From: Giardia intestinalis
Taxonomy: Eukaryota
Reading direction: 5' to 3' (one strand)
Length of the DNA stretch: 64,000 nt
Assembly (NCBI GenBank): GCA_000002435.2
Contig: CM018792.1
Below are positions 2,640 to 64,000 of the stretch, piece after piece. The notes beneath the pieces are model-generated. The model saw nothing but the letters and a program-made list of their open reading frames with translations, did not search any database and was not told the origin of the DNA. Position numbers and translations under genes: made by a program. Positions within the stretch are counted from its first letter, which is position 1, and every line of letters starts with the position of its first letter.

Positions 2640-3866
2640 TCACCGTACATCAAGTAAATTACTAAAGAGTACGTCTGCATCATTCTGAGAATCGGCATCA
2701 AATTCCGTGATAACCACATTTCTGCCTGTAATGTCAGTCCTTTTAATGGAGTGTGGTCTCAGTGGCTTCTGAGGCACTCCATTGCTGTGATAGGCGCCAG
2801 TGACGAAACCTGCACCAGTTGAAGGTGGGCGATGTACTCGAAACTCTAATCGATCAAATCTTAATAGATTGGAAGCTCCCTTTGTAGCCAAATCATACTG
2901 CGTAACTCTGGGTCTGTTTCGTGTGCAAGACGCAGTCATTACCATTGGCTTGACTTCCGGTGGCGGGCCTAGCGCCATTATCTCCTGTCTGAATTGCTTT
3001 GCGGTTCGTCTGGGATTAAACGGAAGCAATGCCTGTGGCCGTGCCAAGGGACTCTTCGCCGTTAGCGGCACATGTTGACTAACTCTGGAGCAGTGCCCTA
3101 TCCCAGTTGCCTTGGTTGTGCACATAGTAATAGGAGATTTAGGGTCACATTTTGCCAGTGACGCTTCTTCATAAGTAGCTGGCCCCGGTACTTGACCCTT
3201 TCTTCCCGGTATTTGCTTAGACTCTGAGACAGTTGTGTCCATTGGCTGTGCAGGATCGAGAGGACTGCATCCAGCGCGTGTAGAAGGGTTATGTGGGAGA
3301 GAGTGTCTTGTGGAGATAGAGTACACTCGTGGGGGGCGGGGCACACTGGCAGGCTTTGTAACCTGGTGACTGGTGTTATTCACGCATACGCTTTGACGCA
3401 GCGGGGTACTGACAACAAGGCTCTCACAAGGAGATCCTTTCCACTCAACTGTAGAGTTTGTTGGCGGAGTAAGTGCGTGCAAAGGCACAAGAGGACTAGA
3501 GACACTACTGTTCTGTAAGCCATTGGTGCATCCAATGACAACCATGGAATCACGTTGCAACGGAGGATCTGCGAGGGTATATTGACGGAAGTATAGAGGA
3601 GACTCAAGGACACTTCGGGCAGATGAAATGGATTTCCTCGAACAGCTAATTGGTAGTTGAGCCTCAGTCGCTTGTGGTGAGGCACACATAAGAGATGGTC
3701 TATCAGATGCAGATCCGTTAGAAATAGGCCGTCTCACCGGACGATGCTCTATCTTTGTCAAAAACGTTTCTGCCTTCCTTTCTTTCCAGGCCTTTTCCAG
3801 ACGGTTACCAACTTCAAGTACCTCCCTATATGGTATAGAGGCAGGCGAGCCTCCATACAGAGACAT
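2640..3866 (-). CDS. hypothetical Ser/Pro-rich low-complexity protein (408 aa)
   Basis: ATG at 3864-3866. An AT-rich initiator-like sequence (TTTTTAAATCAGAATTTATTAG) lies just upstream on the coding strand. Confidence 0.4.
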   Translation of the reverse strand: MSLYGGSPASIPYREVLEVGNRLEKAWKERKAETFLTKIEHRPVRRPISNGSASDRPSLMCASPQATEAQLPISCSRKSISSARSVLESPLYFRQYTLADPPLQRDSMVVIGCTNGLQNSSVSSPLVPLHALTPPTNSTVEWKGSPCESLVVSTPLRQSVCVNNTSHQVTKPASVPRPPRVYSISTRHSLPHNPSTRAGCSPLDPAQPMDTTVSESKQIPGRKGQVPGPATYEEASLAKCDPKSPITMCTTKATGIGHCSRVSQHVPLTAKSPLARPQALLPFNPRRTAKQFRQEIMALGPPPEVKPMVMTASCTRNRPRVTQYDLATKGASNLLRFDRLEFRVHRPPSTGAGFVTGAYHSNGVPQKPLRPHSIKRTDITGRNVVITEFDADSQNDADVLFSNLLDVR

Positions 3867-3946
3867 TTTACAGTAACCGACAACGCTGCACCTAACAATT
3901 TTTAAATCAGAATTTATTAGTAACAGTTCTATTGCTCTATTGACAT

Positions 3947-18700: not shown

Positions 18701-19077
18701 GCAAAGTGATCGATAATGACATCATCAAAAAGCTCAAACGCTGAAAAGGTGACCGAGTGGGATGAGTCAACTAACCCAGTTACCTCTGTGAGCAAGGCCT
18801 CAAGTATACCGGCCTGATAAGAAGAAAGCCTGGTCTTGCCCGTCCCCTGGGTCCCCATTACCAGGATTGTGGACGACTCCCCACTGGACAGTGTTCCCAC
18901 GGTGGTCCGAGCAAGATTGTCCACAAATGCCTTGCTTTCATATGCTTCCACGATTGTGCTCATAGAGAATTGCTTCCGCCGTCCATCCTTGCCGCAGAGA
19001 AAAAGAGACGTGCCATCTACCTCTAGATATCTGGGTCGCGGGTCGGAAAGAACAGCGATTGCTTTAGTGGCGTACAT
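15721..19077 (-). CDS. kinesin-like P-loop protein with degenerate switch motifs plus long coiled-coil tail
   Basis: The N-terminus follows the kinesin motor layout: IAVLSDPRPRY; Walker A GTQGTGKT; VTFSAFELFDDVI (cf. VSFLEIYNE); SSSTMCF (cf. SSRSH); LIDSTPGP (cf. DLAGSE). A ~600 aa heptad-rich coiled coil follows. The first ATG is at 19075-19077, directly behind TTTTAAAA. The track start 19098 is a GTG. Confidence 0.6.
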   Translation of the reverse strand: MYATKAIAVLSDPRPRYLEVDGTSLFLCGKDGRRKQFSMSTIVEAYESKAFVDNLARTTVGTLSSGESSTILVMGTQGTGKTRLSSYQAGILEALLTEVTGLVDSSHSVTFSAFELFDDVIIDHFAPEDDFESTIDNMKITKVQLADKAQSLTLLEYVRNLSKNYTERETTGVAEPAPSSSTMCFKIQLYNQANGAISTVTLIDSTPGPVLHALTTGLLDIASSGQTVEFFISANPIPTAPITQLVLPILARARPVLIGMFNGSSESGQYAETLLAMLHICKTSLETTKVARNRMHPPVNPPIEVTDLIDSELQKALDATIRSRPSISSPLLPVAQDLGTKDDDMKPDMGMLYEDKHSNKYTKTSEPHYDGSYPSFNSTMHEQKTPPQVPQPRPAGFVSPASTSLRPEVELFDQPPSITHVVDPAMYGVQEVNELTGQAYVHDAHSPVYTMSTDAFPAALASSGVDNTAHIISVKHNIVSLDPVVETNISPSVFNSLHAESALATSNTGLSEDQVSLQTVGNVVISPKTQLSDASRQQETAAMLANRFLETLRANARLDAPKAKMTDKTSEQDDVVSTIDSLALDLPQPSSQSDLQALKDKLTTATQALERATLYKDELLARITDLECQGQEALLVSELHMMAAQKRATDIRKIISASLGTTTTAPGSLAKSAIPVADIKRLLNSHEEDISQLEKKLYAEIKGQAEEAIASALNYNKQAASRSLEDAQVKSLVNELRKAVDARLKNEIKLRQLQRQERELSAKMLLFKEIEKKHTVLKQERSGKVSEVRQIKESHKKLQHQNLTSQAELDSLKKQLASATATLQEIKLDVSSLRVAFQNLERAVADHGSETVVFPAYQTNVTSVPLEQATADFMRRSAESGSAFAIHAIHEMQKPTEQPGTREESLALLDHVLGLVEDVLEAIRKKGTVAGLTTDERRVKDCMDDIQACLTKAIRARTTGPSADNYITDYNKYTVTLPQTAAELPPAPAAQEVPVSSIVDTASRMISGAIKATNTEDKDDTMQGYQTGYTMAGLERLRVMAPDVARVAELGIVSAQEAVKAAALDHEPKIATPIHSNQPIGAQIRTSLTDTLQAVQSVEKGIEERLKRLMSGYKENFS

Positions 19078-19261
19078 TTTTAAAACATCGCCTGCCACGC
19101 TTACTGCATAATGGATCTTCCTCTTCCGTGTGAGGTAGCACCCTTTCCCCAGGCTCAGACTGAGTCCATGCGCTTCTGCCCCCCAAAGCTTCTGCCAATA
19201 ATATCATCGCAGGTACTCAAAACAGAGGCTGCAAGCCGAGACGAGTAAGTGTAAATGTTTT

Positions 19262-19855
19262 CTATAGTTCACTCTTTGTAGCGTGCTTGTCTGCAGATGC
19301 AAACCGGCGTAGGGCAATCTTCCGTCTGTACTCATCCAGCTCTTTTGCAAATTGGCGGGTCTTCTCTATTTCCATCCGGAGCTCCTCCTCAACAGCAGCA
19401 TTTTCCTTTCTTAGCTCTTCCAGGTCAATGCTTGGGGCAGTGAAGTAGCTGATTGGTAGGGCGTCAACGCTCTTTCGGATCTCTGTAAGGTGCTCTACGA
19501 TGCTTTGCCCCGCCATTGTGCTGATTTCGATTGGTGTGGAAAGGGTCGTGACGTCTGCACCGCCTTTCACAGGAAGTTCGAGGCTTCTATAATACTCTGT
19601 CGGGAATCGCATGCCTAAACGGACAACCCCAACTGCACTTCCAGCCAGCTCCTTATCGTCATCTGTACCGTTCTGAGGTTGCTGCATGGGGGCCGGCTGC
19701 TGCGATGTCTCCAAGTGCCGAAAAGTCATAGATTGCATTCTATCGTCAAGTTCGTAGTTGAGTTCGTAGATGAGCTTCCACTCAATATTGGTGAGTGGGT
19801 CAAACGAAAGGGTGGGAGCCTGGCGAAGAGGGGAATCGTGCTCCTGGGATGCCAT
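19262..19855 (-). CDS. hypothetical coiled-coil protein
   Basis: ORF with charged heptad-like C-terminus. The track start is a GTG at 19924. The ATG at 19853-19855 has an AT-rich leader (GATAAAAAAC). Confidence 0.45.
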   Translation of the reverse strand: MASQEHDSPLRQAPTLSFDPLTNIEWKLIYELNYELDDRMQSMTFRHLETSQQPAPMQQPQNGTDDDKELAGSAVGVVRLGMRFPTEYYRSLELPVKGGADVTTLSTPIEISTMAGQSIVEHLTEIRKSVDALPISYFTAPSIDLEELRKENAAVEEELRMEIEKTRQFAKELDEYRRKIALRRFASADKHATKSEL

Positions 19856-40141: not shown

Positions 40142-40224
40142 TGCACGCTGTGGGGTTCGAACCCACGCGGGGTCGCCCCCATGAGAGCCTAAATCTCACG
40201 CCTTAACCACTCGGCCAAACGTGC
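40142..40224 (-). tRNA. tRNA-Leu(UAG): tRNA-Leu (anticodon UAG), class II with long variable arm
   Basis: Minus-strand sequence is GCACGTT-TG-GCC-GAGTGGTTAA-GGC-G-TGAGA-TTTAGGC-TCTCA-TGGGGGCGACCCCGC-GTGGG-TTCGAAC-CCCAC-AGCGTGC-A. It has a 7-bp acceptor stem with one G-U pair. The D-loop is GAGTGGTTAA. The anticodon stem is 5 bp and the loop is TT-TAG-GC. The T-arm has GTTCGAA. The variable arm is long. The discriminator is A. Confidence 0.85.
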
Positions 40225-40312
40225 GCGCTCGCGCGTGGAGCCGGGAGGCAGGCGTGTCCGTATGCCTAACCAATTTGAATTCATTTCCGGGTCTGAAAAG
40301 ACAAGGCCCGCG

Positions 40313-41452
40313 ATGTCCCACCGCAAGTTCTCGTGCTGCCGCAAGGGCAACCTCGGCTACCTCCCCCGCAAGCGCTGCACGCGCGGCCGCGGGCGCTGCA
40401 AGACCTTCCCACCAGACGTCCAGGGCGCGCCCATCCACCTCACGGCCTTCCTCGGCTACAAGGCCGGCTGCACGCACGTCATGCGCTTCATCGACCACCG
40501 CGGCTCGAACCTCCACAACCGCCAGGCCATCGACCAGGCGACAATCATCGACGCCCCGCCAATGATCTGCACGGCCATCATCGGGTACGCCAAGACCCCG
40601 AAGGGCCTCCGCGCCGTGACGACCGTCTGGGCCGCCCACATCGCCGAGCCCGCCATGCGTCGCTTCTACCGCAACTACTTCCACGCGGAGAAGACGGCCT
40701 TCTCGACCTACATGAAGAAGGCCGCCGACGGCACATACATCAAGGAGCAGCTTGGGCGCCTTAAGCAGCACGCTGACGTCATCCGCATTGTCGCCCACAC
40801 CCAGCCTGCCCTGACGCCCCTGAAGCAAAAGAAGGCCGACATCATGGAAATCCAGGTCAACGGCGGAGCGAACGTGGCCGAGAAGGTCGACTATGCGTAC
40901 GCCCTCATGGAGAAGCCGATCTCGATCAAGGACGTCTTCAGCGTGGGAGCACAGATCGACACCATCTCCATCACGCGCGGCCGTGGGTTCGAAGGCGTCG
41001 TCACCCGCTGGGGCGTCACCCGTCTTCCGCGTAAGACCCGCCGCGGAAACCGCAAAGTTGCCTGCATCGGTGCCTGGCACCCGGCCAACGTCCAGTATAC
41101 TGTCGCCCGCGCCGGTCAGATGGGTTACTTCCACCGCACGGACACCAATAAGCAGGTCTTTATGATTGACACAGCGGAGAACCCCAGGTGCTGCACAACG
41201 GAGTTCGATCTGACAGACAAGAGCATCAACCCGGTCGGCGGCTTTGTCAACTACGGCCGCGTCCAGGGAGACTTCATCATGATCAAGGGCACGTGCCCAG
41301 GACCCAAGCGCCGCCCGGTTGTCATGCGCAATGCCCTCCTCCCTCACCGCAACTGTCCTCCGGTCCAGCTTCAGTGGATCAGCACGGCCTCCAAGTTCGG
41401 TCACGGTATCTTCGAGACCGTTGAGGAGCGCAGGCAGTTCTACGCCAAGTAG
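40313..41452 (+). CDS. RPL3: 60S ribosomal protein L3 (uL3)
   Basis: MSHRKFSCCRKGNLGYLPRKRC...HLTAFLGYKAGCTHV...VACIGAWHPANVQYTVARAGQMGYFHRTDTNK...SKFGHGIFETVEERRQFY matches eukaryotic L3 end to end. The true ATG is 40313. The track start 40235 is a GTG. Confidence 0.93.
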   Translation: MSHRKFSCCRKGNLGYLPRKRCTRGRGRCKTFPPDVQGAPIHLTAFLGYKAGCTHVMRFIDHRGSNLHNRQAIDQATIIDAPPMICTAIIGYAKTPKGLRAVTTVWAAHIAEPAMRRFYRNYFHAEKTAFSTYMKKAADGTYIKEQLGRLKQHADVIRIVAHTQPALTPLKQKKADIMEIQVNGGANVAEKVDYAYALMEKPISIKDVFSVGAQIDTISITRGRGFEGVVTRWGVTRLPRKTRRGNRKVACIGAWHPANVQYTVARAGQMGYFHRTDTNKQVFMIDTAENPRCCTTEFDLTDKSINPVGGFVNYGRVQGDFIMIKGTCPGPKRRPVVMRNALLPHRNCPPVQLQWISTASKFGHGIFETVEERRQFYAK

Positions 41453-41503
41453 GCCGACCGTGTGCCAAGTGAACCAGGCGCTCCTCCGTTTACTTTGCAA
41501 TGT

Positions 41504-49033: not shown

Positions 49034-50524
49034 ATGCATACGGGGCCTATTAGTGCCAATGCAGCAACCCGCAATAGCCATAGAAGGCTGCTCATACCGC
49101 TTCCTTCTAACTCTTTTTTACCTCCGCTGCTCTCTCAAAATTGTCTCCAAGCTTTTGTTGCTATGCGCCACGTCAATATAACACCTATTTATAGCGTTTC
49201 TCCCTGCAGTGATAAGGTGCTTCAGGTTTGTACTGAGCCGTGCGTTTCATGCACACTACGTCACGTAATCGACGAGCTTTCGTTTTTGGAGAGTGAATGT
49301 GGCATTAGGCTGGCAGCATCCATTTTTGTCGGGGCCTTGGAAGCATTGGCTTATTTAGCTTGTCTCAGTAGAGTGTGGGGACTAGAGTTAGACATTCAGA
49401 ATATAAATTGGCTGGATATGTTATGCGTAGATGACAGAGGGCAGTGGAAAATAATTGCCCATAAGATGAGTTCTTATCGGGGTGGTCACAAGCCATGCAA
49501 TAGCATATCAGGCACACATACGCCTTCTAATAACTTTCGTACTTGTGATGAAATAGCCCACATGTGTTTACCCGGTATGCAGTCACTGGGACTTATTATA
49601 TTGAATTTACTAGTTGCTGGGTCTCGCATTGACCTAGAGGAAAGTATAACGCTACGAAGTTGGAATAAACTTCAAACGGATATTGCATGCTCCCGAAACA
49701 AACACGAGATTCCTGACCTAAGGCTTTTCATTGATACGCTCAGTATCATATGGGACGAAAACTTCAACCAGCCTGTACATCCATATCACATACTCACGCG
49801 CCTTCTGCCCATTCTTCAGACATACATGAAAGACGAATCTACTAAAAGCGGAGCAGTGGACCCTGAACACAGAAGAAAATCAAAATACTCTCCGCTTATG
49901 CTCGGTGTCTTATCCAAAGACTATGAGCTCGTGCAAAGACACATTTCGTATGCAGGTTGTAGAACAGCATCAGGAATGACAGCCCTTATGATGGCGGCAA
50001 GAGACAATTTTGTAGAAGCCGTACAGATTCTACTTCCCCATGAAGCACACTATAAAACGTTTTTAGGGACTAGATTTGAGAGTAGAACAGCACTGATGTT
50101 CGCAACCCACAACCGCAACTACGACTCCATGCATATACTCTATGAGCAAGAAGCTGGAATCGCTAATGTCTATGGGGCCACATCCTTAATGCGTGCAGCT
50201 CAAAATGGAGATTGTGTAGCAGTTGAGATACTCATGAAGCGCGAAGCAGGAATGGCTAACTACACAGGGTTTACGGCACTGATGAATGGAGCCACAAAAG
50301 GCTTCACCAAAATTGTAAGTTTGCTGCTCCCATTTGAAGCAGGAGGAGTTACAAATGATAAGCACGAATGGGGAAAGGGCCATTCTGCCCTTTCGCTGGC
50401 GGCAATGAATGCTAACAAAGAGGTAGTTTTGTTGTTATATGAAGTTGAGCGACAGTTACTTAAGTCTCGGTGCATATTAACATCCGGAAAAACAGTGATA
50501 GAGGAGCTTATTGAAGGAAAGTAG
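49034..50524 (+). CDS. ankyrin-repeat protein, Giardia Protein 21.1 type (496 aa)
   Basis: At least five tandem ANK repeats in the C-terminal half: G(M/A/F)TALM.AA..N....V..LL. The ~280 aa N-terminal domain lacks kinase catalytic motifs. Confidence 0.75.
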   Translation: MHTGPISANAATRNSHRRLLIPLPSNSFLPPLLSQNCLQAFVAMRHVNITPIYSVSPCSDKVLQVCTEPCVSCTLRHVIDELSFLESECGIRLAASIFVGALEALAYLACLSRVWGLELDIQNINWLDMLCVDDRGQWKIIAHKMSSYRGGHKPCNSISGTHTPSNNFRTCDEIAHMCLPGMQSLGLIILNLLVAGSRIDLEESITLRSWNKLQTDIACSRNKHEIPDLRLFIDTLSIIWDENFNQPVHPYHILTRLLPILQTYMKDESTKSGAVDPEHRRKSKYSPLMLGVLSKDYELVQRHISYAGCRTASGMTALMMAARDNFVEAVQILLPHEAHYKTFLGTRFESRTALMFATHNRNYDSMHILYEQEAGIANVYGATSLMRAAQNGDCVAVEILMKREAGMANYTGFTALMNGATKGFTKIVSLLLPFEAGGVTNDKHEWGKGHSALSLAAMNANKEVVLLLYEVERQLLKSRCILTSGKTVIEELIEGK

Positions 50525-53500
50525 TATAGTTATCTAGTTATGCCAGTTGATTACATGTGTCATACATAACGTGGTAGCCAATAGCTTAATATAATGCTAT
50601 CAATACATATGGTTATCATATTAAGACGCAGGACCTAAATGCTACAGGCGGCCTCAGAAAAAGCTCTCTGAGGGAACAAGAAGTGAGGCGACTAATGCAC
50701 CGAGGATGCTGCAGGCCTCTGTCCACGGAATGCAAACCCATTACTATGCAATTCGCTACCACAGGCTTCTGTTTGCGGTGACACAACTGCTGGGTGTCGC
50801 CACGCTCTGGAAGCTAGTGTACGGGCTCACGTTGTAAGGCCGGCGGACCGGAGGATGCAGGGGCCACAGGGTAGCGACTGACCATCATGGTTCTATAGGC
50901 TCTGCGGCTAGTAGCACAGGGGCAGGGATGCTGCATCCCGGTGATTGGCTCAGGGCCGCACTATCCAATGGGCCGACGACCCTCATGTTGTTTCAATCTG
51001 ACGTGGCCTCCACTGCTGCTCCCGTACGAGTTGGAGAAGGGGCTGGCCCCATCGAATGCGGCAGAGAACAACAGGCGCCCGGCCTTCGGGCGAGGAAGCT
51101 GGGTGATCTCGTCCAGGCGAAGCCGACTCCTCACCGTCCTCTGGGTCCTGCCTCTTCTACCGCCCTGGCACAACATAGCTCGGTAGGGGGCGGCGTGTCT
51201 GCGCTACAGGACGCGTCGTCAAGAAAGAGTGGGCCTGGAGAGACCCGACGGCCACCGCTGGGATAGGCCTCAGAAGCCCTTGGCTGCAGGATACGCTACT
51301 GCCAGGGTCAGTGCAGGCTATGGCTTTGAGGAAGCGCAGGACTGATGGGTGCTATCAGGAAACACCTGGCACGTTCTCGTGTAGAGGGGGACTCAGGCTT
51401 GCGGGCTCGGATGTCTGCCATTTCCGTGTCAAGTTGATGTGACCAGATCAGGGGCAGTGGTCGAGGGATCGATCCACAGGCTCCAGAACAATATGTCGAA
51501 GAACAAGCAATCAGACTGGCGGTGGCTTCGGCAGTGTCGTGGCCCGGGCCTCTTCAGCCGCGCTTGATGGAACCCGACGTTGCGCCAGGCGACGGGACAG
51601 GGCACCGGTCGTCCTTAGAGCATGCAGGAGGCGAGGCTTGTGAGCCCATGGGCGTCTGGCCTGCCAGCTGAGGCCACATCGGTGACGAGGCCCAGGGTGA
51701 TGCAGCGTGGATGACCCTGTGCGCGTGTGCTCTGTGATGACGGGCCTGACGGTGAGTGCAGCAAGGTTATAGGCACGGGCTCTGTCTGGGCCAGGGCCCC
51801 AGAGCTCTTTCTGTCGCAGGGAAGAATAGGGCAGCGCGGTGCAAGGAAGGCATCTAGCAGGATGCTGGGAAACTGACCCGATGTGGCAAATCACGGGCGC
51901 TGCCAAACACGGCGTCTCTTCTCTTAGACAGAAGACAGGCAGAGTGGATGATTGCGGAGGCTGCAGTGTCCGTGGTAGATCGCGGCATCGCAAGGTGGCT
52001 GAGTCTGTGCCGGTGTGTCTGTCCGGGCTCTAAGTGCGCTCTGAGGATCACCTGCTGATGGGCTGGAAGGCCCGAGAAGTGATGCGCTGCCCTTGTCATC
52101 GCGGGCAGCGCCCTGTGGCACGCACTCGAGCCAGCGCCTCCTGGTGGCCAGAAGCAGAGCAGAGGCAGACGGCCGGTCGTGCATCCGTCCAGGCGGCTCA
52201 CTGCGTGTAGAGCGAAGAAGACCACCTGCGCCGCTCGGGTTATTGCTCAGCATCAAGTGCGGATGGAAGGCTGGGCCCGGCAACCAGGGCGCCGACCTGC
52301 ACGCTCCCGTCAGCCATCCCAGGCCGGTCAGAAGCCAGGCTCGACAGGCAGTGCAAATGCCAGGGAAGCCAGCGTGACCATCGGGCCCGCGTTTGAATGC
52401 TAAAAAACTTGGGCAGCGATGGCGACTGTCGTCTTCCTGGGAGGGCGCCTCTTCGCACAGGGTCAGCCGTCCTGGCCCTGCATACTGGGTGCGCGGCTCG
52501 AAGGCGCGCTGTGCTAGTTGTGGACCTGTCAGGCGCTGCAGCCTACGAATAGCACGGACGGATGCAACGGAGTGTCCGCGCAGTGCACTGTCATTGTCCC
52601 AGAGAGCTGTTGTTCTAACCATGCGCCCTACACCGGCTCGGCATACCCCTGCTGCTTCCGCTGCTGGTCTGTCTGCCACTTGTTTATTATAGCGGGGGGC
52701 GCATACGCTTATAGTGTCGTCTAGGCACTGTAGTGGTCTTCTCGGACGGTGCATGTATATTCACATGATGGCCGATGGGTGGAGCGGCTGCCTGATCTTA
52801 GAGCTCTCATTGCAACAAGGCGGGGCGTCGGCTGTCTACACGCCTCTAAGCGAGCCCGCGACCTCTGTGCAGATGCCTGCTCGCCGCGCTCCATAGTGAC
52901 GGCTGTACACCCAGAAGGGGTCGCAGAATCCTCCGCTGTCCTTCGAGGTGGACCACGGCTTGTGCACAGGCTAGCGACGGGGCCTGCGCACCAGTTGCTA
53001 TGGGTCCAGTCTGCCGGGCACCTGGATTACAGTGCACGTCAAGACTGCACACTCGTTTGCATGCTCGCTGCTCGTGTTGGACAGAACTGCGAGGGGTCTG
53101 TCTCTGGCCATCCTCGCCTTAGTGCTTGGCCCTTGATGACACGCCTCAGCAGAGGATGGTGTCTTCTAAGTACTCGGAAGACTATCCGTGCCTGGCGGTT
53201 CCTAGAGAGTCGGTTCGCACAGAAAGCGTAGATGTGCCCGGCGGGCTGGCGGGGTAGGGCTGGGGCTACAGAGACTAGCCATTAGCCCGGATTACAGCAG
53301 GGACACCTGTAGTGCCTCCTCGGCTCCTAAGCGTGGAAAGGCCGTAGAACTTGCAGATGAGTTGGAGGCTGGTTTTTGATTTTATGCATTTGCAGCAGAG
53401 CAGAGTTTACTGAAGGTCCACTTATTCTAAATTCGAGGAGCCTCATCTCCTCCTCACACACGGTGAGATGATCGATTGTAGAGGTGTATTGTGCAAACCG

Positions 53501-55204
53501 GTGGCAGTCAGCGTATATCCAGACGGATACTGCCTGCGTCCTCTTGTGGCAGACCACCACCAGGGCTCCAATCTGCACATCTGTTCTGGCATCTGTCGGG
53601 CAATCATCACCTTTGGTCGAATGATTGCTGTACGTCACACAGCTTGAGCCATCCGTCGACCAGGTGGTGCCATAAGCTCTTGTCCCCTACTTGTCCACCC
53701 GATGCAGACTCTGAGCGCCGCCAGTTGCACTCACGTCTGCACTACTCATCTGGATGCCCCCACTCTTCAAGAGCACATGCCCGCAGCCGATGCTCCGTAT
53801 TACAAGAGGAGCCAGCCGGGCCACTGCGCTGTGCATAGCTCTCCTGGGCGTATTGTTATGCGCGCCCAGCCTTTCCATCTATAAGTCACCACGCAGCTCT
53901 TTCCCACCGTCTCGCGTCCACATGTGCGCCAGCGCCGCCGAGCTTTCGTGGTCTCGAGGGGCCCCTGATGCATGGAGCGCTTGCGCAAAGTCCTTCCACC
54001 ACTGACCCAAGCCGACCCCTCGCAAGATCCTTAGCGGAGTTGCGTCCGAGATGTGTGCCTGCGTTGCTGTCCAGGTGCATGTGCCGGCCCTGGTGCTTCC
54101 CACAAGCTTGCGAGCATCGAGCTGGCCGCTACCGAACCGTATCAGAAGTCAGCACCAGGATGTAGTCCCATCAGTCAGGCTCTGCAGGCTCCCAGAGCTA
54201 CGCATCAAAAGGCCGTTCTTCTTTGGTTGTGCAGCGTGGGGAGATGCACCGAACTACCACACCCTCTCCGTGTGGCGTGGTTTACGACGGGGGACGGGGT
54301 CCCTGTGCTCATGTCTATCTGCCCAGGACGAGTCGCAGCCCGGGTTGACAATGACAAGCGAGCATCGCCCGGCTCCTTGTCAGCGGGTGGGAGATCCCGC
54401 CACCCTAGTACCCACAGCAACGGGTGCCGATCACTGGCAGAGGGACACGACACCCAGGCTCCCGTTCCTTCCACTGATGGTAGCCCACTATGAAGAGCCC
54501 TTTGTCGCCTGCACCAACAACCTCAGGCACTGTGGGTCAGAGCGCCTCCATAGTGGACAGCGGTAGCACTATGATGATCTGGGGTGACAGGAGTCCCGGT
54601 CTATCAACTCAGGAGACAGCACGCTTTGGGCAATGCTTCCCTCCTGTCCAGATCTGGGAGGACTGGCTGCCTTCTGAGCCCACCTGGCACCTTGTCAGGT
54701 GATGGAGTGTCTTAAAGTATTCATTACAAAAGATCAGAAATAGCGCCATGCATTCCCAATAGACCAGAACGTCTCCTAGGCTACTCTATGCTGATTCGCA
54801 CCTTTCATGGACCCTAGCGATCACTGTAATCTTCTCTCGGGATCCCGCAAGGGACTGTCCTTGAGTGCGATTCCCCCACGACAGCCGGGAGTCGCAGACA
54901 TAATCCAAAGGGATGAGAGTACTACAGAGGCTGAGAGGAGAGCGCCGATGCACAGGGGTCCGCAGAGACCCGGTTCGTACAGGGAAGGCGTGGAGGCTGG
55001 CTCTCCAGGGATGTAGAGCCACCAGGAAAGGAGCTGGCAGTGGGGCTTAGGCGCAGCAGAGGCACCCGATCCGTCCTCTGATTGGCCGCGAGGCAGTAGG
55101 CGCATGGGGCGGCATCACCGCTTGTTTTTGGATTTTCTGCTTCCCTGCGCGTTGTGCAGGGGTCCGCAGTGGGCTGAGTATCACAGGCTACACATAGTAG
55201 ATGC
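50525..55204. other. 4.7-kb ORF-poor, moderately GC-rich block without recognisable coding potential
   Basis: The longest ORF is 276 aa with random-looking composition. Both strands are littered with stops. No rRNA 5-prime signature and no TAGGG telomere repeats were found. Confidence 0.5.
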
Positions 55205-55221: not shown

Positions 55222-57465
55222 CTACGCCTTCCCTCTGCAGATGAACCACCAGCAGAGGAAGCCGACGAGGCCGGCCACAATGACAACCGCCGCGACAGAG
55301 ATCCCTGCTATGGCACCGGTAGAAAGGCCGCTCTTATTCGTGCTTCCCCCGGTACTTTCACCGTTCATGAGGTAGCAGAGAACGGAGCCACTACCAGCCG
55401 ATGGAGGGGCGCAGCTAGCGCAGTTGGCGACGCCGGTGATGGATCCCCCGTCGCTCTTGTCGCATGCTATACACTTTTCTTTGGACGGGTAGTACCCTGC
55501 AGCGCACACCGTGCACTTGGTGGCGTCGTTCGCATTGCACTCGGAGCACTCAGTGGCGCAGGGAACACACTTCTTAGTGTTACCGCCAGTCTTAGCATAT
55601 CCAGCCTTACACGTGTCGCACTGGTCCTGGCTGGTGCACGTCTTACATCCGGCCGAGCAAGTGATGAGCGCGCCGTTATTCAGCTTGTACCCGTCGGCCG
55701 GAGTCTGACAGGCATCGCTCGCTTCTGCTGCGGCTAAGCAGACGCTCTTTCCGGGGAACTTGGTCGTCTCATAGCAGCCCCCGTTCATACGAAGAAGCCC
55801 GTTGGCGCATTTGTCACAGACACCAGTCCCTTTGGTAGTGCACGTAATAGCCTTTCCGGCCGCCGCCGAGCAGACTCCGTTCTGTGGAAACTGGCCGGCT
55901 TCCTTGCACTTGGAGCAGTAGGCCGTGCCATCGACCGTCAGCTCGCACTTCTCGCAGTTGTTAGCATTTGGCTCGCATCCTGGTTTGCACGTCCCCGTGT
56001 TGCCCTCTCCTTCGTAGCTGAGGGCCTTCTTAGGCTCACAGCTCGTACACCCGTTGGAGTTCCCGTTCGCGCACGTCTTGCACGAGGTATCGCACTTGGC
56101 ACAGGCGGTTTCTTTCTTGTAGTATCCGTCCTTGCAGGTCTCGCACTGTCCTTGCCCGTTGCACAGGAGGCAGTTCTCGACCTCGCACTTCTTGCAGGCC
56201 TTCTTGCCCCCCTCGTTGGTGCCCGCGTAGTAGCCTCCCAGATCTCCGCACGCATCGATGCACTGGCCCGTGGGCGTGAGGGCCTTAGTGCCCTCGCACT
56301 CTGTGCACACCTCCTTGCTTGTCTTCGGCTCACTGCACGTCTTGCAGCCGGGGGTGTTGCACGGCGCCGCAGGGGGGTCGGACTTCTTCATGCACCCGGT
56401 GCCGGCCTCCTCGGGAACGTAGCCCTCAACGCACTCACAAACGCCAGAGGTCTTTTCCTCGTTGGAGTTCAAGGGGCAGCTTTCAACGCACCCCTTCTTG
56501 TTTGGCTGGACCTTCTTCTGGTTTTCGCACGTCTTGCAGGCGACTGCTCCATCGGCGCCCTTCTCGCACGTCGCGCATCCATTGGAGGTCCCCTCGGCGC
56601 ACGCCTTGCACGTCTTCGGCTCAGTGTCGTCGGCGTAGTGGGTGCTTTGATTCTTGCACTCAGTTTCGGTGACGCACGTGCCAGTGTCGCTGCCATTATC
56701 CTTCTTCAGGTACGGCTTGTCGTCCTTACAGGAGGTGCACTTCGCAGCCTCGGTCTTACAGGTCTTGCAACCAGGATCACACGCCTCACAGGTTTTGGTG
56801 CCGCCATTTTTCACGAAGAACCCTTCGGTGCCGGTGCACTCTTCTTCTGTCACGCAGGAGGTGGCTGAATCTGTAGCCGTCTTCAGATACTTACCTTCTT
56901 GGCACGCAGTGCATGTGGCAGCCTTAGTGCCACTAGCTGATAGTTGCTCTGGTTTCTCACAGGTAGCGCACCCAGCCACCCCCGTGTATATCTTATCGCC
57001 AGTAAGTGTTACGCCCGTCGCGTCTCCGCACGAAACAACAGAGTCGTGGGCGTCGTCTGTATCTGCCGGCGGGACAAAGTACTTATTTCCAGCGACAGCC
57101 TCTGTGCACTTACCAGCATCTGCCGCTTGACACATGGCATTGCCAGGGGGTTTTGCTCGTTCATAGCACCCGCCCTTGTACATGAAGGAGTTGCCGTTAC
57201 ATCCTGTACATTTTCCGCCTGCGTGTGTCTTACATACTGCTGTATCAGACGACACATCTGTGCATACCCCGTTGACAGGAGCGCGATCAGCGGGATCTGC
57301 CTTGCATTGAGAGCAATACAATTTACCATCAATCAGAACGTTGCATGCCTCATCGGCACAATTGGTAGTTTGATCTGCACAGGTAGCCGTTCCAGCTTTT
57401 TCTGCTATCTGTGCCGTCCATACAAACTGAAGGATTACCCCCGCGAGAACAAATCTACAGAACAT
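55222..57465 (-). CDS. vsp: variant-specific surface protein (VSP), complete, 747 aa
   Basis: Signal peptide MFCRFVLAGVILQFVWTA. About 11% Cys with many CxxC motifs, and a GGCY motif. C-terminal TM plus invariant CRGKA tail, followed by the VSP poly(A) element. Confidence 0.93.
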   Translation of the reverse strand: MFCRFVLAGVILQFVWTAQIAEKAGTATCADQTTNCADEACNVLIDGKLYCSQCKADPADRAPVNGVCTDVSSDTAVCKTHAGGKCTGCNGNSFMYKGGCYERAKPPGNAMCQAADAGKCTEAVAGNKYFVPPADTDDAHDSVVSCGDATGVTLTGDKIYTGVAGCATCEKPEQLSASGTKAATCTACQEGKYLKTATDSATSCVTEEECTGTEGFFVKNGGTKTCEACDPGCKTCKTEAAKCTSCKDDKPYLKKDNGSDTGTCVTETECKNQSTHYADDTEPKTCKACAEGTSNGCATCEKGADGAVACKTCENQKKVQPNKKGCVESCPLNSNEEKTSGVCECVEGYVPEEAGTGCMKKSDPPAAPCNTPGCKTCSEPKTSKEVCTECEGTKALTPTGQCIDACGDLGGYYAGTNEGGKKACKKCEVENCLLCNGQGQCETCKDGYYKKETACAKCDTSCKTCANGNSNGCTSCEPKKALSYEGEGNTGTCKPGCEPNANNCEKCELTVDGTAYCSKCKEAGQFPQNGVCSAAAGKAITCTTKGTGVCDKCANGLLRMNGGCYETTKFPGKSVCLAAAEASDACQTPADGYKLNNGALITCSAGCKTCTSQDQCDTCKAGYAKTGGNTKKCVPCATECSECNANDATKCTVCAAGYYPSKEKCIACDKSDGGSITGVANCASCAPPSAGSGSVLCYLMNGESTGGSTNKSGLSTGAIAGISVAAVVIVAGLVGFLCWWFICRGKA

Positions 57466-59240
57466 TGGGGTCAGCCGGTTACTAGGAGACGGACAGAACT
57501 ATTAATACATTATTATCAATCTGTGTGATACACAGTAGAGTGTAATACTGGGCACACTTCTGAACGACGTCACGTGAGTGATGAGAACGCCATCCTGTCA
57601 TTCGCGGAGGGCCTCTCATTCTCCCTCGTTATAGACCGTGGCAACAGAGACACAACAGGCAGCTCGTCCGTCTCCGTAAGCATTCCAGGGAGTCCTGCCT
57701 GTCTGTACGAGGAGGTTTACTCTTCCACCAAGGACGGTTTCCGGCTGCTTCCGGTACATCAGTCGTGCCTGGACCGCTAGTCTGTTGACCGCTCGGGATT
57801 TCAGATATGAAGGCTTGGATGTGTCCAGGTTCTGGTGGCGGTGATGGAGTATTCCACGTGGGTTTTTGCAGGGGCGGGTCTTTCTGAAGCATACCGCAGG
57901 CAGATCTGCGATACACTGACCCACTACCATTGACGGGTGCTCTTGCGCTAGTCTTGTATCTGGTTCGCTGATGATCCCCCCTAGACGACATCTTCCGCCA
58001 TCTCTCGGAGAAGCGCGGTCTCAGACCAACCTCCAGTGGAACAACTCATCAGTTCCGCCTGTGTGGCGGGCTTCAGGCTTACCTGCAGGCGTAATCCAGA
58101 AATTTCACGAGTGGGTCTCGTCATTCCTGGCCAGTTCAGAGACGAGGGTTGGTCGTTAATGATATAATAGGGATCTCCCTTCACTTGTATACCAGGAGTC
58201 TTTTGCGTCTCTCAGTCGCTCCGCAGGGGTGTGCTCAGGCTGAGTATGCACGCCGGTCCTTTCGGGGTTCAGGCCTTCTCGTGGACTCTCTGCTCTATCA
58301 GTGGCGCCTCTCCTTGGTCTGCCGCCTTGGTGGGTGTAACTCTGGTCACTGTCCTTTTTTAGATGCTCCCGTCTGTCAGGGGCCGTCATCGGGCTCTCCG
58401 CTGGCTGGGCCTCTCAGTGTCCGGGCAGCTGTGGCTCGAGTCAGGGCTCCCACGGTCGCGGTCACTTGGGTCTCAGTGGGTCAGCTGGTGGGTGAGGCGG
58501 GGTTGGTGGGTGAGGCTGGAGGGCTCTGGTGGGGGCTGAGGCGGGGGGTGTTGTATGTGCCTCTGGATCCGGTGGGCCAGTGGGGTGGTGGGTGATCCCC
58601 TCTCTGTTTGCCAAGGTGGTTGCGTCTGATCCCCAGCCTTCGTTGCACTCCTGAGACAGAGGCACCGACGATCGTGTCGTGTCCCCTGACTGAGCGCCTC
58701 CCTTGGCCCCTGCATGTCTCGGGCAGTACTGCTTCTCTGTTTGACTAGTACGTGAGTGTTGAGGCAGGCCATCGCAGCCTCTCCTGTTGCTCGCTGGTGC
58801 TCTGTGCGGGTCTGCTGAGCCCCTGGCATGCCCTGTCCAGTGCCTCGACGGTAGTTCACCTCGGGCCAGCAGGGGTGTGGATGAGCCTGTGGATGGGATG
58901 GGGTGCTCTCAGGCCTCTAGTGTGATGGCCCTCGAAGACTGGCATGGTGGGGACCGGGTGGGCGGTGTTGTATGTGTCCCTGGTCCGGTGGGCCATGTCG
59001 GGTGATCGCAGCTGTGGTGACTGGAGGCTGTCTATCTGTGACCCATCCCTCTGTGGACTCGGGAGTGCCCTCCGCCCAGGCAACAGTGGTGCTGCTGGGG
59101 CCCTCGCCTGCGGGCGCTGTCCAAAATCTCGCGAGTAAATTCCCGCTCAATTTTTGGCGATGTCCGGAGACGAGGGTTGGTCACGGGCCGTAACGATAAT
59201 CACAGCGGTTGTAAGGAGGAGCTATCTGCGTTCCTCGGCT
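57195..59240. repeat. left arm of perfect inverted duplication (mirror coordinate = 121195 - x); contains VSP 5-prime 270 bp + 1.77 kb upstream
   Basis: Every ORF of 60 aa or more in this arm has a letter-identical twin on the opposite strand of 61955-64000. Examples are 58149..58595(+) with 62600..63046(-), and 58972..59193(+) with 62002..62223(-). Direct base check: 57466-57640 equals the reverse complement of 63555-63729. Identity ends at 59240/61955. The outer limit is set by the window end. Confidence 0.9.
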
Positions 59241-59930
59241 GTTCCGTGGGCGTGCGCACAGCTGGACCTGAAGCGTCGAAGAGCCCGCGAGGACCCGATC
59301 CGCATTATGAATGCAAGATCGTACCTCCGGGGCCCCCAGAGAGCAATCGTGAGTCTCTACTCGGGGGACCACTCCGAAGACGTTTACTCTCTCAGCAGGA
59401 CACACGTGCTGGCTCTGTGGCCAACCGTGTGAGAGCGCCAAGCAACTAACCGAGCACCTGAGAGAAGCAAACGATGACAGACACAGAGTGCTGGGCGACG
59501 ACAAGTTGATCATTCCGGCCCAGTACCGAACCGGACAGCTGCCATGCTCATCCACCAAGGTGCACGCATGATCGCGAGCATCGAGCAGGCTGGGACTGGG
59601 GTCGCGCTCCCCGCTATCAAGGGCCTGAACGCCCTGGTGGGAAGCCCCAGAAGACTCAAGCAACACAGTAGAGCAGGCCCAGAGTAAGGCAGACCCAGAC
59701 CCCGAGAAGGCGAGACGCCGGATAGCAAACAGGGTGAACAACGCGCTGAGCTTCGGGGCAGTTGCTAAGGCTCTCCGCGCCCTTGATGAGACACCCATGG
59801 TAGACATCAAGTCGGAGAAGGCCGACCGCCCTCAGCGCGCTACACCTGTGCGTCCTCCCGAAGGCTACGTTGGCCTTGACTACCCTCCATCGATGAACTC
59901 GACGGGCTGGAGCCGGCAACCGAGGAGGAA

Positions 59931-60676
59931 ATGAGGAAGGCCCTGTTGGGACTCTCAACAAGAAGGCCTCGGGCCGGTCCAGCTCAAGGCGATGAAGCAG
60001 AGCGACAGCTTCGTGAAGTACCTCACGCAGGCATACAACGAGCTGACCACCCACCCCGAGGCGATGCCAGAGGTGATGGCCATGCTCGAGTTCCGGGCGA
60101 TCCTCATCCCGAAGGAGTCCGACGGATACCGCCCGATCGCGATAGGCGAGACGGTGACAAACATCTTCCACCGCGTCCTGCTGAAGGGCTGATCAGGCAT
60201 GCCAACTACCTCTTGTGCGAACAGATCGCCTTCATGCAGAACGCATACGCGGTAGGTGTGAGGAGGGCCCACGAGCTCATCAGCAGGCGGGGATGCACGC
60301 CGTCTCCCTCGACATAACGAACGCCCTCAACTCGCTCCCGAGGGCAGAGGTCGCCAGAGCCCTGAACGAGGCGGGCGTCCCGAAGGTCATGGTCGACCAC
60401 ATCGGGGACTTCCTCGACCTGAGGCACAGCCGGGACGTGAAGTGCGAGGTCTGCGGCGTCCCCCAGGGCGACCCGCTCAGCATGCTCCTCTTCTGCATGG
60501 CCATCGAGCGCCTCCTGAGACGCCTCAAGGAGAGAGGCATCCCCTTCCTTGCCTATGCGGACGACATCGTGGCGTTCCACGACGAGGCCTACCCGGCAGG
60601 TGTGATAACACAGCTGGCCATGGGCCTGACGATCAGGAGCGACAATGCAAGTCCACCATGGCGGGCGAGGAGGTGA
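59931..60676 (+). pseudogene. reverse transcriptase domain remnant (frameshifted)
   Basis: RT motifs 0, 1, 2, 3, A, B-prime/C (YADD) are spread over three reading frames (ORFs 59931.., 59992..60192, 60215..60676). Confidence 0.8.
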
Positions 60677-61219
60677 CCTTCCTCAACCACCCGGTGTCCC
60701 CCACTCCAGCAAGCCTTACCCCAAAGGCCATCGCAGGTGCTGAGACTGCCCTGAGGAAGATCGAGAACGCCCCAATAACCACCCACCAGAAGCTCATCCT
60801 GCTGTCACTCTGTGTGATCCCGATGGTGAACTACGCCCCCCTGGTCGAGATAACATCGGACAAGGCGGACTACGAGGAGCTGACAGACGTCGCACAAGGC
60901 TTCAGCAAGCTAGCCAACAGAAGCTGCGATCGCCTGGTCGACTTCCTGGCGTACCCGAAGGAGAAGGGCGGCCCGGGCCTGCTCATGCTGGGACTCTACC
61001 ACGACGAGCTGCGGAGGGCATGGACTCCCTGGACGTCAACAAGGGGGCCAGAGACCCGGTGGAGCTGTCGGTGGAAGGCCAGGCACTGCAAGGGAAGGGG
61101 GCCTACTTCAACCGCCTCCTCACGCGCACACACCAGCTTTCGGACAGAGCGGCGGCGTGCTGACCGAGGAGGAAAGGGCCCTGAAGCAGAGAGATGGCTC
61201 GATCATGGGGCAGACAAGA

Positions 61220-61689
61220 GGCACCTGCCCGGGCTGCCACACGGCAAGGACCCTCGACCGCGACATGATCGTCACGTGCCTGTACCTCCGCGTCTCGGGG
61301 AAGCTCAACCGGAGCTGGAAGTCAAGACCCACAGCCACCTCAGCGACCAGAACCAGAAGCCCGACATCTGGCTCGTCGACAAGTGCAAGGCAGTGGACGT
61401 GCGTGTCATCCAGCCCCGCCAGATGGATGCCTACTACAACGAGAAGGCCAAGAAGTACAGGGACGGGACGCTCCCGATCATCTACGGGACAGATGGATCC
61501 CTCCACCCCAAGTCCAAGGGGCACCTCGAGGAGCTCCACGTGGACCTCTGTCCGGGCTGCCTTCGCCATCGCCTACATGGCTGCAGAGGCGAACGAGCAC
61601 CTGACGGAGCTGATCAGACGCGACCGGGCCGAAAGCCTGGTCACCCAGAGCGACCGTCTCCTGTCATCCTACTTCTGACAACCGAATGA
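61220..61689 (+). pseudogene. Cys-His motif + restriction-enzyme-like (PD-D/ExK) endonuclease remnant
   Basis: CPGCH...C is in one frame. KPDIWLVDKCKAVDVRVIQ...EKAKKY is in another. The ORF ends at 61689 and is followed by a ~265 bp tail with no poly(A) tract. Confidence 0.6.
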
Positions 61690-61954
61690 ATCCATCCCCG
61701 GGACCCGACGACAACGACCGAGAAGGGGCAAAGACTGGACACACAGCCGAGTTGAATCCCAACCAGAAGAGAAAGCCCGCTAGCTGCTGCTGATCTGTAT
61801 GGACAGTATTGAGAATGACAACAAAGACCAGAGCTTCACTCACCGTGAAGGGAGAACAAGGAGAGGCGCTCTAACAGGCCAGCGAACCTGCAGGACGGCT
61901 TGATCTCTGAAAGAACCGATGTGCACATCCAGTCTGAGTGTACTCCTGTAGAAT

Positions 61955-64000
61955 AGCCGAGGAACGCAGATAGCTCCTCCTTACAACCGCTGTGATTATC
62001 GTTACGGCCCGTGACCAACCCTCGTCTCCGGACATCGCCAAAAATTGAGCGGGAATTTACTCGCGAGATTTTGGACAGCGCCCGCAGGCGAGGGCCCCAG
62101 CAGCACCACTGTTGCCTGGGCGGAGGGCACTCCCGAGTCCACAGAGGGATGGGTCACAGATAGACAGCCTCCAGTCACCACAGCTGCGATCACCCGACAT
62201 GGCCCACCGGACCAGGGACACATACAACACCGCCCACCCGGTCCCCACCATGCCAGTCTTCGAGGGCCATCACACTAGAGGCCTGAGAGCACCCCATCCC
62301 ATCCACAGGCTCATCCACACCCCTGCTGGCCCGAGGTGAACTACCGTCGAGGCACTGGACAGGGCATGCCAGGGGCTCAGCAGACCCGCACAGAGCACCA
62401 GCGAGCAACAGGAGAGGCTGCGATGGCCTGCCTCAACACTCACGTACTAGTCAAACAGAGAAGCAGTACTGCCCGAGACATGCAGGGGCCAAGGGAGGCG
62501 CTCAGTCAGGGGACACGACACGATCGTCGGTGCCTCTGTCTCAGGAGTGCAACGAAGGCTGGGGATCAGACGCAACCACCTTGGCAAACAGAGAGGGGAT
62601 CACCCACCACCCCACTGGCCCACCGGATCCAGAGGCACATACAACACCCCCCGCCTCAGCCCCCACCAGAGCCCTCCAGCCTCACCCACCAACCCCGCCT
62701 CACCCACCAGCTGACCCACTGAGACCCAAGTGACCGCGACCGTGGGAGCCCTGACTCGAGCCACAGCTGCCCGGACACTGAGAGGCCCAGCCAGCGGAGA
62801 GCCCGATGACGGCCCCTGACAGACGGGAGCATCTAAAAAAGGACAGTGACCAGAGTTACACCCACCAAGGCGGCAGACCAAGGAGAGGCGCCACTGATAG
62901 AGCAGAGAGTCCACGAGAAGGCCTGAACCCCGAAAGGACCGGCGTGCATACTCAGCCTGAGCACACCCCTGCGGAGCGACTGAGAGACGCAAAAGACTCC
63001 TGGTATACAAGTGAAGGGAGATCCCTATTATATCATTAACGACCAACCCTCGTCTCTGAACTGGCCAGGAATGACGAGACCCACTCGTGAAATTTCTGGA
63101 TTACGCCTGCAGGTAAGCCTGAAGCCCGCCACACAGGCGGAACTGATGAGTTGTTCCACTGGAGGTTGGTCTGAGACCGCGCTTCTCCGAGAGATGGCGG
63201 AAGATGTCGTCTAGGGGGGATCATCAGCGAACCAGATACAAGACTAGCGCAAGAGCACCCGTCAATGGTAGTGGGTCAGTGTATCGCAGATCTGCCTGCG
63301 GTATGCTTCAGAAAGACCCGCCCCTGCAAAAACCCACGTGGAATACTCCATCACCGCCACCAGAACCTGGACACATCCAAGCCTTCATATCTGAAATCCC
63401 GAGCGGTCAACAGACTAGCGGTCCAGGCACGACTGATGTACCGGAAGCAGCCGGAAACCGTCCTTGGTGGAAGAGTAAACCTCCTCGTACAGACAGGCAG
63501 GACTCCCTGGAATGCTTACGGAGACGGACGAGCTGCCTGTTGTGTCTCTGTTGCCACGGTCTATAACGAGGGAGAATGAGAGGCCCTCCGCGAATGACAG
63601 GATGGCGTTCTCATCACTCACGTGACGTCGTTCAGAAGTGTGCCCAGTATTACACTCTACTGTGTATCACACAGATTGATAATAATGTATTAATAGTTCT
63701 GTCCGTCTCCTAGTAACCGGCTGACCCCAATGTTCTGTAGATTTGTTCTCGCGGGGGTAATCCTTCAGTTTGTATGGACGGCACAGATAGCAGAAAAAGC
63801 TGGAACGGCTACCTGTGCAGATCAAACTACCAATTGTGCCGATGAGGCATGCAACGTTCTGATTGATGGTAAATTGTATTGCTCTCAATGCAAGGCAGAT
63901 CCCGCTGATCGCGCTCCTGTCAACGGGGTATGCACAGATGTGTCGTCTGATACAGCAGTATGTAAGACACACGCAGGCGGAAAATGTACAGGATGTAACG
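61955..64000. repeat. right arm of perfect inverted duplication (reverse complement of 57195-59240)
   Basis: See the left arm entry. It includes the second VSP start. Confidence 0.9.
63730..64000 (+). CDS. vsp: second VSP copy, 5-prime partial (first 90 codons identical to VSP at 55222..57465)
   Basis: ATG at 63730. Translation MFCRFVLAGVILQFVWTAQIAEKAGTATCADQTTNCADEACNVLIDGKLYCSQCK... is identical to the first VSP. It runs off the window. Confidence 0.85.
   Translation, partial: MFCRFVLAGVILQFVWTAQIAEKAGTATCADQTTNCADEACNVLIDGKLYCSQCKADPADRAPVNGVCTDVSSDTAVCKTHAGGKCTGCN

Follow-up and report, generated by a model that had tools for sequence, protein, structure and literature searches.

Anatomy of a palindromic VSP gene pair in Giardia intestinalis: an intergenic arm that is very likely made up in large part of antisense retroelement 3' sequence

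Fourteen pairs of identical, inverted genes for variant-specific surface proteins (VSPs), spaced by 2-4 kb of "non-coding DNA", were described in Giardia by Adam et al. 2010 and called "cryptic" (PMC2996952). A 2022 preprint, which for identical inverted pairs of isolate WB also cites Xu 2020, reports that duplicated head-to-head VSP pairs often have retrotransposon remnants between them, and its S4 table lists the pair GL50803_00112801/d112801 as head-to-head, with 6,264 nt between the genes that hold a pseudogene as well as "two retrotransposon relics" (bioRxiv 10.1101/2022.03.07.483299). The current study concerns the DNA between the genes of this pair as it occurs in a 64,000-nt stretch of the Giardia intestinalis genome (assembly GCA_000002435.2, contig CM018792.1; hereafter the window), and in particular the region 57466-59240 directly upstream of the left VSP gene. 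This region is very likely the non-coding arm part of a VSP palindrome on chromosome 4 of isolate WB, whose centre is an R2-like retrotransposon of the GilD type, dead and truncated at its 5' end; the outer 615 bp of the region are locus-specific, while its inner 1.18 kb consist of antisense retroelement 3' sequence. The region is real, ordinary and already known, and the new contribution made here is its detailed anatomy.

GilD is a "dead" non-LTR (long terminal repeat) retrotransposon family of Giardia, reportedly described by Arkhipova and Morrison in 2001, and presumably the same as the Genie 2 of Burke et al. 2002. In the latter work, Genie 2 is said to possess an inverted repeat of up to ~172 bp; the stretch 59089-59261 of the window measures 173 bp. 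GilD adjoins VSPs and is disrupted by microhomology-mediated deletions (Gladyshev and Arkhipova 2010, PMC2861651), and Gil elements in general have unusually long 3' untranslated regions (UTRs; PMC5537684). The element of the window is similarly Giardia-specific, exists in copies that are all degenerate, with frameshifts and internal indels, adjoins VSP genes, has a long 3' non-coding region and encodes a single open reading frame (ORF) with a reverse transcriptase (RT) and a putative C-terminal restriction-like endonuclease (RLE), the latter read as a motif by eye. It differs from GilD in that its inverted repeat is extended to >2 kb and includes the whole VSP, and in that a second 3'-UTR copy is located outside the core element.

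The palindrome itself is exact over most of its visible length. Positions 57195-59240 are the reverse complement of 61955-64000, with 0 mismatches over 2,046 nt, and perfect identity stops at 59240/61955 after 1,775 nt of VSP upstream DNA, beyond which a degenerate extension of the inverted repeat reaches 59261/61934. A unique centre of ~2.7 kb (59262-61933) separates the arms, and the region 57466-59240 is simply the intergenic portion of the left arm. The visible arm length is bounded by the window end on the right side. A first-pass annotation of this DNA had assigned the same upstream sequence to each VSP of the pair and had ended it at 59240; both points were borne out, as the mirror VSP has its ATG at 63730, which yields an ATG-to-ATG distance of 6,264 nt, and 59240 proved to be the precise end of perfect identity. 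Unrecognized at the time was the RT-coding spacer between the arms, which is the key to the region. The principal parts of the locus are as follows.

55222-57465, minus strand: left VSP gene, 747 aa (Pfam VSP, E=6.6e-141; 747/747 identity to P0091, which is WB-C6 KAE8304498.1/KAE8304499.1, the GL50803_00112801 pair)
57195-59240, no strand: left arm of the perfect inverted repeat
59256-61678, plus strand: dead non-LTR retrotransposon ORF (RVT_1, E=1.8e-15; three-frame reading; homologues P0001-P0003 at 64-67% identity)
61679-62106, plus strand: the element's own 3' UTR, with module X' (61826-61938) and terminal module A' (62009-62106, ending in ...CAGCAGCAC)
61955-64000, no strand: right arm of the perfect inverted repeat, comprising the 3' UTR end, a spacer, the second 3' UTR copy to 63114, the 615-bp unique segment and the VSP start
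63730-64000, plus strand: start of the mirror VSP, its first 271 nt or first 90 codons, continuing past the window (tblastn, 100% identity over aa 1-90)

An inverted repeat lacking a single mismatch over 2 kb could conceivably be an assembly artefact in which one real arm was duplicated in silico, and duplicated VSP pairs were once questioned on exactly these grounds (bioRxiv 10.1101/2022.03.07.483299). We consider this extremely unlikely for the present pair. An independently assembled contig from isolate DHA2 (locus L003) exhibits the same architecture with arms that are 81-99% identical, and hence not collapsible. Furthermore, the pairs were confirmed in a chromosome-scale WB assembly and are listed with matching length, while short-read contigs break at such repeats, as true duplicates predict. 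The VSP of the window corresponds to two consecutive accessions of WB clone C6, KAE8304498/99, on a 2.76-Mb chromosome. Like the pairs of Adam et al. 2010, the present pair consists of identical, inverted head-to-head ORFs with flanks that are identical up to an abrupt divergence point. It is absent from Table 5 of that study, where the maximum shared upstream sequence is 729 nt, and with 1,775-1,796 nt it exceeds all of the pairs given there.

The centre of the palindrome carries the features of a decayed retrotransposon. The RVT_1 match lies at 60215-60676 and includes a YADD motif at ~60551-60562; a C2H2 finger is found at ~59410, and a CX2C motif (CPGCH...) at ~61225 as well as a PD..D..K endonuclease-like motif (KPDIWLVD...D..K) at ~61360 were read by eye. 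Pfam returned nothing for the C-terminal 121 aa, no profile being in existence to score the endonuclease-like motif. The ORF is clearly dead, as it contains at least 4 frameshifts together with in-frame stops, and its high-scoring segment pairs with P0001 run through frames 3/1/2/1/3. Its homologues are Giardia proteins with only a little less decay: P0001 (1108 aa, 66% identity, RVT_1 E=1.2e-26), from isolate GS_B, derives from a copy that is frameshifted near the endonuclease, while P0002 and P0003 come from isolate DHA2, whose copies carry annotations as fragments of 587-595 aa. No relatives of P0001 turned up in a metagenome search. On the GS_B contig AHHH01000232 (locus L001, 1-3462), the element encodes ~318 extra N-terminal residues with additional C2H2 fingers and has only 1-2 frameshifts. 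Activity of the family may be more recent in assemblage B than in assemblage A.

The nearest solved relatives of P0001 in the PDB are R2 retrotransposon proteins, and the likeness to R2 and other RLE-type elements extends to the N-terminal C2H2 fingers, the putative C-terminal CX2C and PD..D..K motifs, the lack of poly(A) and a conserved 3' terminus. In R2, the structured 3' terminus is bound by the protein to prime reverse transcription. Unlike R2, the Giardia element has no ribosomal DNA target, its insertion sites vary between copies, and RNA binding by its 3'-terminal module A (see below) is only predicted. More distant RT relatives were also encountered. Isolate P15 (ACVC01000108, L006) carries at least 4 diverged RT copies within 20 kb among NEK and ankyrin genes (356-1371, 3319-5536, 9089-10557 and 18675-19839), which share 32-45% amino acid identity with the window element, none of them with module A. 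Neither this contig nor an ENA metagenome contig with another distant RT relative (L008) contains module A or any DNA similarity to the arm.

The arm can now be read in terms of this element: it is composed of a second, older copy of the 3' UTR, followed by a spacer and by the final ~180 nt of the core 3' UTR in inverted orientation. From the VSP gene inwards, it contains the following parts.

57466-57560, minus strand: VSP core promoter zone (CAATGTT initiator located at the ATG, with a patch of AT-rich sequence, GC 0.42, 30-60 nt upstream; read from the sequence)
57561-58080, no strand: locus-specific spacer, which, added to the promoter zone, makes up the outer 615 bp
58081-58505, minus strand: second, diverged copy of a complete GilD-like 3' UTR, including module X at 58234-58347 (mirror 62690-63114 against core 61679-62106, 58% identity)
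58081-58159, minus strand: outer terminal module A with the first copy of GAGACGAGGGTTGGTC (nhmmer, E=3.7e-17)
58478-58546, no strand: G-rich short reiterations, GGTGGGTGAGGC-like, three copies (repeat search and Tandem Repeats Finder, TRF; also in L003 at 700-750)
58540-58587, no strand: first copy of a ~48-nt direct repeat (family D6; kept in both L003 arms)
58663-59088, no strand: ~425-bp segment with the second ~48-nt repeat at 58957-59004 (present in the window, absent from L003 and L002; alignment and blastn)
59089-59261, minus strand: final ~173-186 nt of the element's 3' UTR in inverted copy, with the second GAGACGAGGGTTGGTC inside inner module A' at 59105-59186 (found at the equivalent position in L003, 915-1083, and in L002, 9193-~9350)
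59255-59262, no strand: junction of the inverted 3' UTR with the 5'-truncated ORF (microhomology TG(T/C)GCACA, 7-8 nt; alignment)

Several observations support this assignment. Firstly, the element's 3' terminus can be placed at position 62106, because similarity to the two GS_B copies (L001 and L010) stops right after ...CAGCAGCA. Secondly, the outer ~430 nt align along their whole length with the core 3' UTR, which identifies them as a second 3'-UTR copy; even with module A excluded, the local alignment scores 56 versus 20 +/- 2.9 in shuffles. Thirdly, both 3'-UTR copies end in the same module A, a sequence of ~80-95 nt that reads GACCAACCCTCGTCTCCGGACATCGCCAAAAATTGAGCGGGAATTTACTCGCGAGATTT.GGACAGCGCCCGCAGGCG...CAGCAGCAC in the sense orientation. 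Eleven copies of module A were found among the window and L001-L003 and a twelfth in L010, always at the core 3' end (A') or at the outer arm end (A), and a metagenome scan for the motif found nothing. Between assemblages A and B, module A is 85-87% identical, compared with only 72-73% for the ORF DNA. It can be drawn as a nested stem-loop with a 22-pair consensus, in which 93% of cells are paired versus 33-52% with slid partners. Strand composition points the same way, with a T content of 0.146 in the sense strand of the ORF and 0.132 in the right arm, as opposed to 0.205 in the outer 615 bp. The spacer of the arm is G/T-rich in antisense and carries both the short reiterations and the ~425-bp segment, which is replaced in L003 by ~35 nt of unrelated filler. 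The segment represents an indel within the family, similar to those that GilD is reported to have. Based upon its linkage and strand composition, the arm middle (~58506-59088) would be UTR-derived as well; a derivation from the C-terminus of the ORF was rejected, as tblastn yielded only chance-level matches.

The direct repeats that first drew attention to the region acquire a straightforward explanation from this anatomy. All of those listed in the first-pass annotation exist: the 16-mer GAGACGAGGGTTGGTC occurs at 58139-58154 and 59167-59182, the ~50-bp block at 58540-58587 and 58957-59004, and the G-rich reiterations as three copies at 58478-58546 (family D5), within which TRF detects a 12-bp unit x2.9 at 58511-58547. 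The 16-mer belongs to a repeat family, D16, of 21 nt with 90% identity and a spacing of 1028, and none of 300 shuffles contained an exact direct repeat as long as 16 nt (mean 10.7, max 14). The two copies of the ~48-nt block are 73% identical ungapped and 84% identical over 62 nt when gaps are allowed. GAGACGAGGGTTGGTC is the reverse complement of the first stem strand of module A, and the direct repeats are two copies of the 3'-terminal module (the 16-mer) plus internal reiterations of the UTR spacer. A simple satellite common throughout the genome, which had been named as the alternative, is not what TRF shows, since the 12-bp unit is all that it reports.

The arm has no coding signal. It had been described as free of ORFs of more than 150 aa, and the largest start-to-stop ORF is indeed 148 aa (58149-58595, plus strand, TTG start). 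A missed or spliced protein might still be imagined, given that ORFs of 104-148 aa are present on both strands, yet hardly any credence can be given to this idea. The ORF lengths are as expected in random sequence of the same composition, the longest stop-to-stop frame in 57466-59240 being 166 codons, while Markov shuffles yield 156 +/- 34 and 30% of them reach 166. A concatenate of all 14 arm ORFs had no homologue among 5.8 billion proteins, and no Pfam family matched in the arm. In alignment with L003, the frame of the 148-aa ORF is interrupted by 7 indels whose lengths are not multiples of three, and its substitutions are spread evenly over the three codon positions (33/27/30).

Comparison with other Giardia loci reveals which parts of the arm travel with the element. 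Five family loci could be compared: the window, L001 and L010 from GS_B, and L002 and L003 from DHA2. L003 and L002 share 87-89% identity with window positions 59089-62106; arm positions 58081-58662 are 79% identical to both L003 arms, and 58162-58394 are 72% identical to the left flank of L002. Next to the element, the window has VSP heads, L003 has a VSP tail on either side, L002 a NEK kinase gene, L001 a truncated VSP and L010 a VSP tail, so that the neighbours differ between loci. Since the same sequence accompanies the element beside differing neighbours, and since the upstream sequence of a related VSP (L009, below) is unlike it, the inner 1.18 kb belong to the retroelement rather than to the VSP. 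The earlier suggestion of retroelement UTR debris was therefore correct for the inner two thirds of the region (58081-59261), which are antisense 3'-UTR sequence that recurs with the element elsewhere, whatever gene is next to it.

A VSP adjoins the element in 4 of the 5 loci (window, L001, L003 and L010). In L003, the VSP stop codon is 45-56 nt from the arm end. The element 3' terminus (...CAGCAC) lies 45-52 nt past the VSP stop, just beyond the AGTAAAC signal, in L003 (238-300) and L010 (5281-5335). These positions hint that the element's endonuclease may prefer the conserved VSP 3' flank as an insertion site.

These comparisons also bear upon the view that the VSP pair is controlled by the arm, as a cis-regulatory or epigenetic module such as an extended promoter, an insulator or a silencing platform. 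The arm is located directly upstream of both VSP copies, is 100% identical between them, and upstream intergenic areas have been speculated to control vsp expression (Adam et al. 2010, PMC2996952). However, the same sequence is found beside a VSP 3' end in L003 and beside NEK in L002, always joined to the RT element. The VSP of L009, which is 77% identical to that of the window, shares nothing with it upstream of the ATG, and its contig is without GilD sequence. Homogenization of the arms would explain their perfect identity, and it would cover the coding region too. Giardia promoters are short, and the AT-rich patch and initiator (Inr) within 100 bp of the ATG should suffice for the VSP. The CAATGTT initiator is of the Inr type as defined by Adam et al. 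2010 (PMC2996952). A control module specific to this VSP pair, as once proposed for the region, is thus contradicted, and for the arm as a whole we regard such a role as very unlikely; most likely, the arm DNA plays no part in VSP expression. The outer 615 bp (57466-58080) match only their own mirror at 63115-63729; they had no match in loci L001-L010 and no Pfam or protein homologues. As a separate observation, the VSP of L009 (DHA2, AHGT01000144) is bracketed by a 380-nt inverted repeat of 99% identity (1-380 and 3901-4280), and no RT remnant was detected on that contig.

The boundary between the arm and the element provides some insight into the history of the palindrome. The GS_B ORF extends 318 aa further towards the N-terminus, and the homology of the window to it begins at aa 319, corresponding to position 59256, exactly at the inverted-repeat boundary. 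The TG(T/C)GCACA junction found there is common to the window, L003 and L002, with L002 retaining ~15 nt more of the inverted copy. This common junction indicates a single ancestor of the assemblage-A copies, already truncated at its 5' end, where part of its own 3' UTR had been attached in inverted orientation. In L003, arm identity grades from 99% outside to 81% at the centre. The flank of A' exists in "left" and "right" variants, and L003-right groups with L002-right, whereas both window arms carry the left-type flank (97% identity to L003-left and 87% to L003-right). Judging from this pattern of variants, the most parsimonious scenario would be that the window arms were homogenized by gene conversion or re-duplication after the left and right variants had diverged, with the tract ending at 59240.

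A plausible sequence of events can be proposed from these features. Module A/A' would constitute a structured 3' end recognized by an R2-type RT when it initiates target-primed reverse transcription. At the 5' end, the inverted piece of 3' UTR may have arisen once, either by twin priming or template switching, and been inherited by all assemblage-A copies. This built-in inverted repeat could subsequently have served as both a seed and a pairing surface for outward extension and homogenization of the arms by fold-back synthesis or gene conversion, and two identical VSP copies would have been produced and maintained as a result. Twin priming in L1 offers a possible analogy, as an inverted segment is likewise joined to a 5'-truncated copy at a microhomology, but L1 inverts the 5' portion of the element, whereas the inverted part here is a duplicate of the 3' UTR. 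Palindromes seeded by short inverted repeats in yeast, Tetrahymena and mammalian amplicons are comparable in that a short ancestral repeat is found inside a far larger, near-perfect palindrome; this is by analogy only, no break or intermediate having been observed.

A number of points weigh against the interpretation given here. The candidate RNA structure of module A contains only 1 compensatory pair, and its covariation is not above that of shuffles; in folding tests, the GS_B module alone folds significantly better than shuffles (z = -4.3), and the window copies fold no better than these (z = -1.35 and -0.96). The arm middle has no detectable homologue in the core element, the element does not account for the ~520 bp of the outer 615 bp beyond the promoter zone, and the comparison covers five family loci. 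The assignment to GilD is a probable one, drawn from properties (dead, beside a VSP, R2-like). Similarly, the proposed steps of twin priming, fold-back synthesis or gene conversion, and RT recognition of module A are deduced from anatomy. Lastly, most tail-to-tail VSP pairs in WB have a "VSP-like region" between them and not retrotransposon relics (bioRxiv 10.1101/2022.03.07.483299), and given these spacers, the element cannot explain all VSP pairs.

The palindrome might also act through its transcripts. Antisense transcripts are abundant in Giardia, small RNAs from Gil retroposons have been reported, and RNA interference has been proposed for VSP control. If both arms were transcribed, the product could be a long hairpin or long non-coding RNA that feeds small-RNA silencing of VSPs or retroelements, and in a plus-strand transcript running through 57195-64000, the two arms would pair perfectly over at least 2 kb, with the VSP 5' end among the paired sequence. 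However, Rfam gave no match over 50.5-64 kb at E<=1, the element, being dead and truncated at its 5' end, has no obvious promoter of its own, and most duplicated WB VSP pairs lack retrotransposon relics. Taken together, we view a palindrome serving this purpose as quite unlikely. A broader proposal would have the element's inverted 3' UTR both creating and maintaining VSP twins and, via read-through hairpin transcripts, supplying a small-RNA pathway of VSP silencing; this too we hold to be unlikely. Were it true, kilobase-long palindrome hairpins over VSP 5' ends could supply double-stranded RNA.

Some of the neighbouring DNA is unusual in its own right. The block at 50692-55200 is ORF-poor, has a GC content of 0.57-0.63, adjoins the VSP tail and exhibits no strand asymmetry. 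It had been likened to the arm in composition, which is accurate for G+C, but the two share no sequence and the T-poor strand bias of the ORF and right arm is not continued in the block (50.7-55.2 kb). A relationship between the block and the arm was accordingly rejected, and the block also showed no similarity to any compared locus. All 23 of the 23 short-read contigs that carry the neighbouring gene at 49034-50524 end at 50691. Among 1.84 billion representative proteins, the ORF at 51924-52754 (minus strand) has just one relative, P0079 from a Logan assembly, at 89% identity. Further away, 40196-41500 is the most GC-rich kilobase of the window (GC 0.64), with ORFs of >400 aa on both strands (434 aa minus, 405 aa plus).

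As a discovery, this locus matters little, since it is included in the WB reference genome and its pair is listed in the 2022 preprint. The additions made here are modest: the conservation of a 3'-terminal module across assemblages A and B, a common microhomology junction and evidence for homogenization of the arms. For those annotating Giardia genomes, the locus is a caution that long, seemingly "empty" regions upstream of VSP genes can be retroelement tails rather than regulatory DNA. For the biology of the VSP family, it suggests a testable way in which duplicated VSP pairs, the "cryptic" pairs of Adam et al. 2010, may have arisen by means of a dead retroelement.

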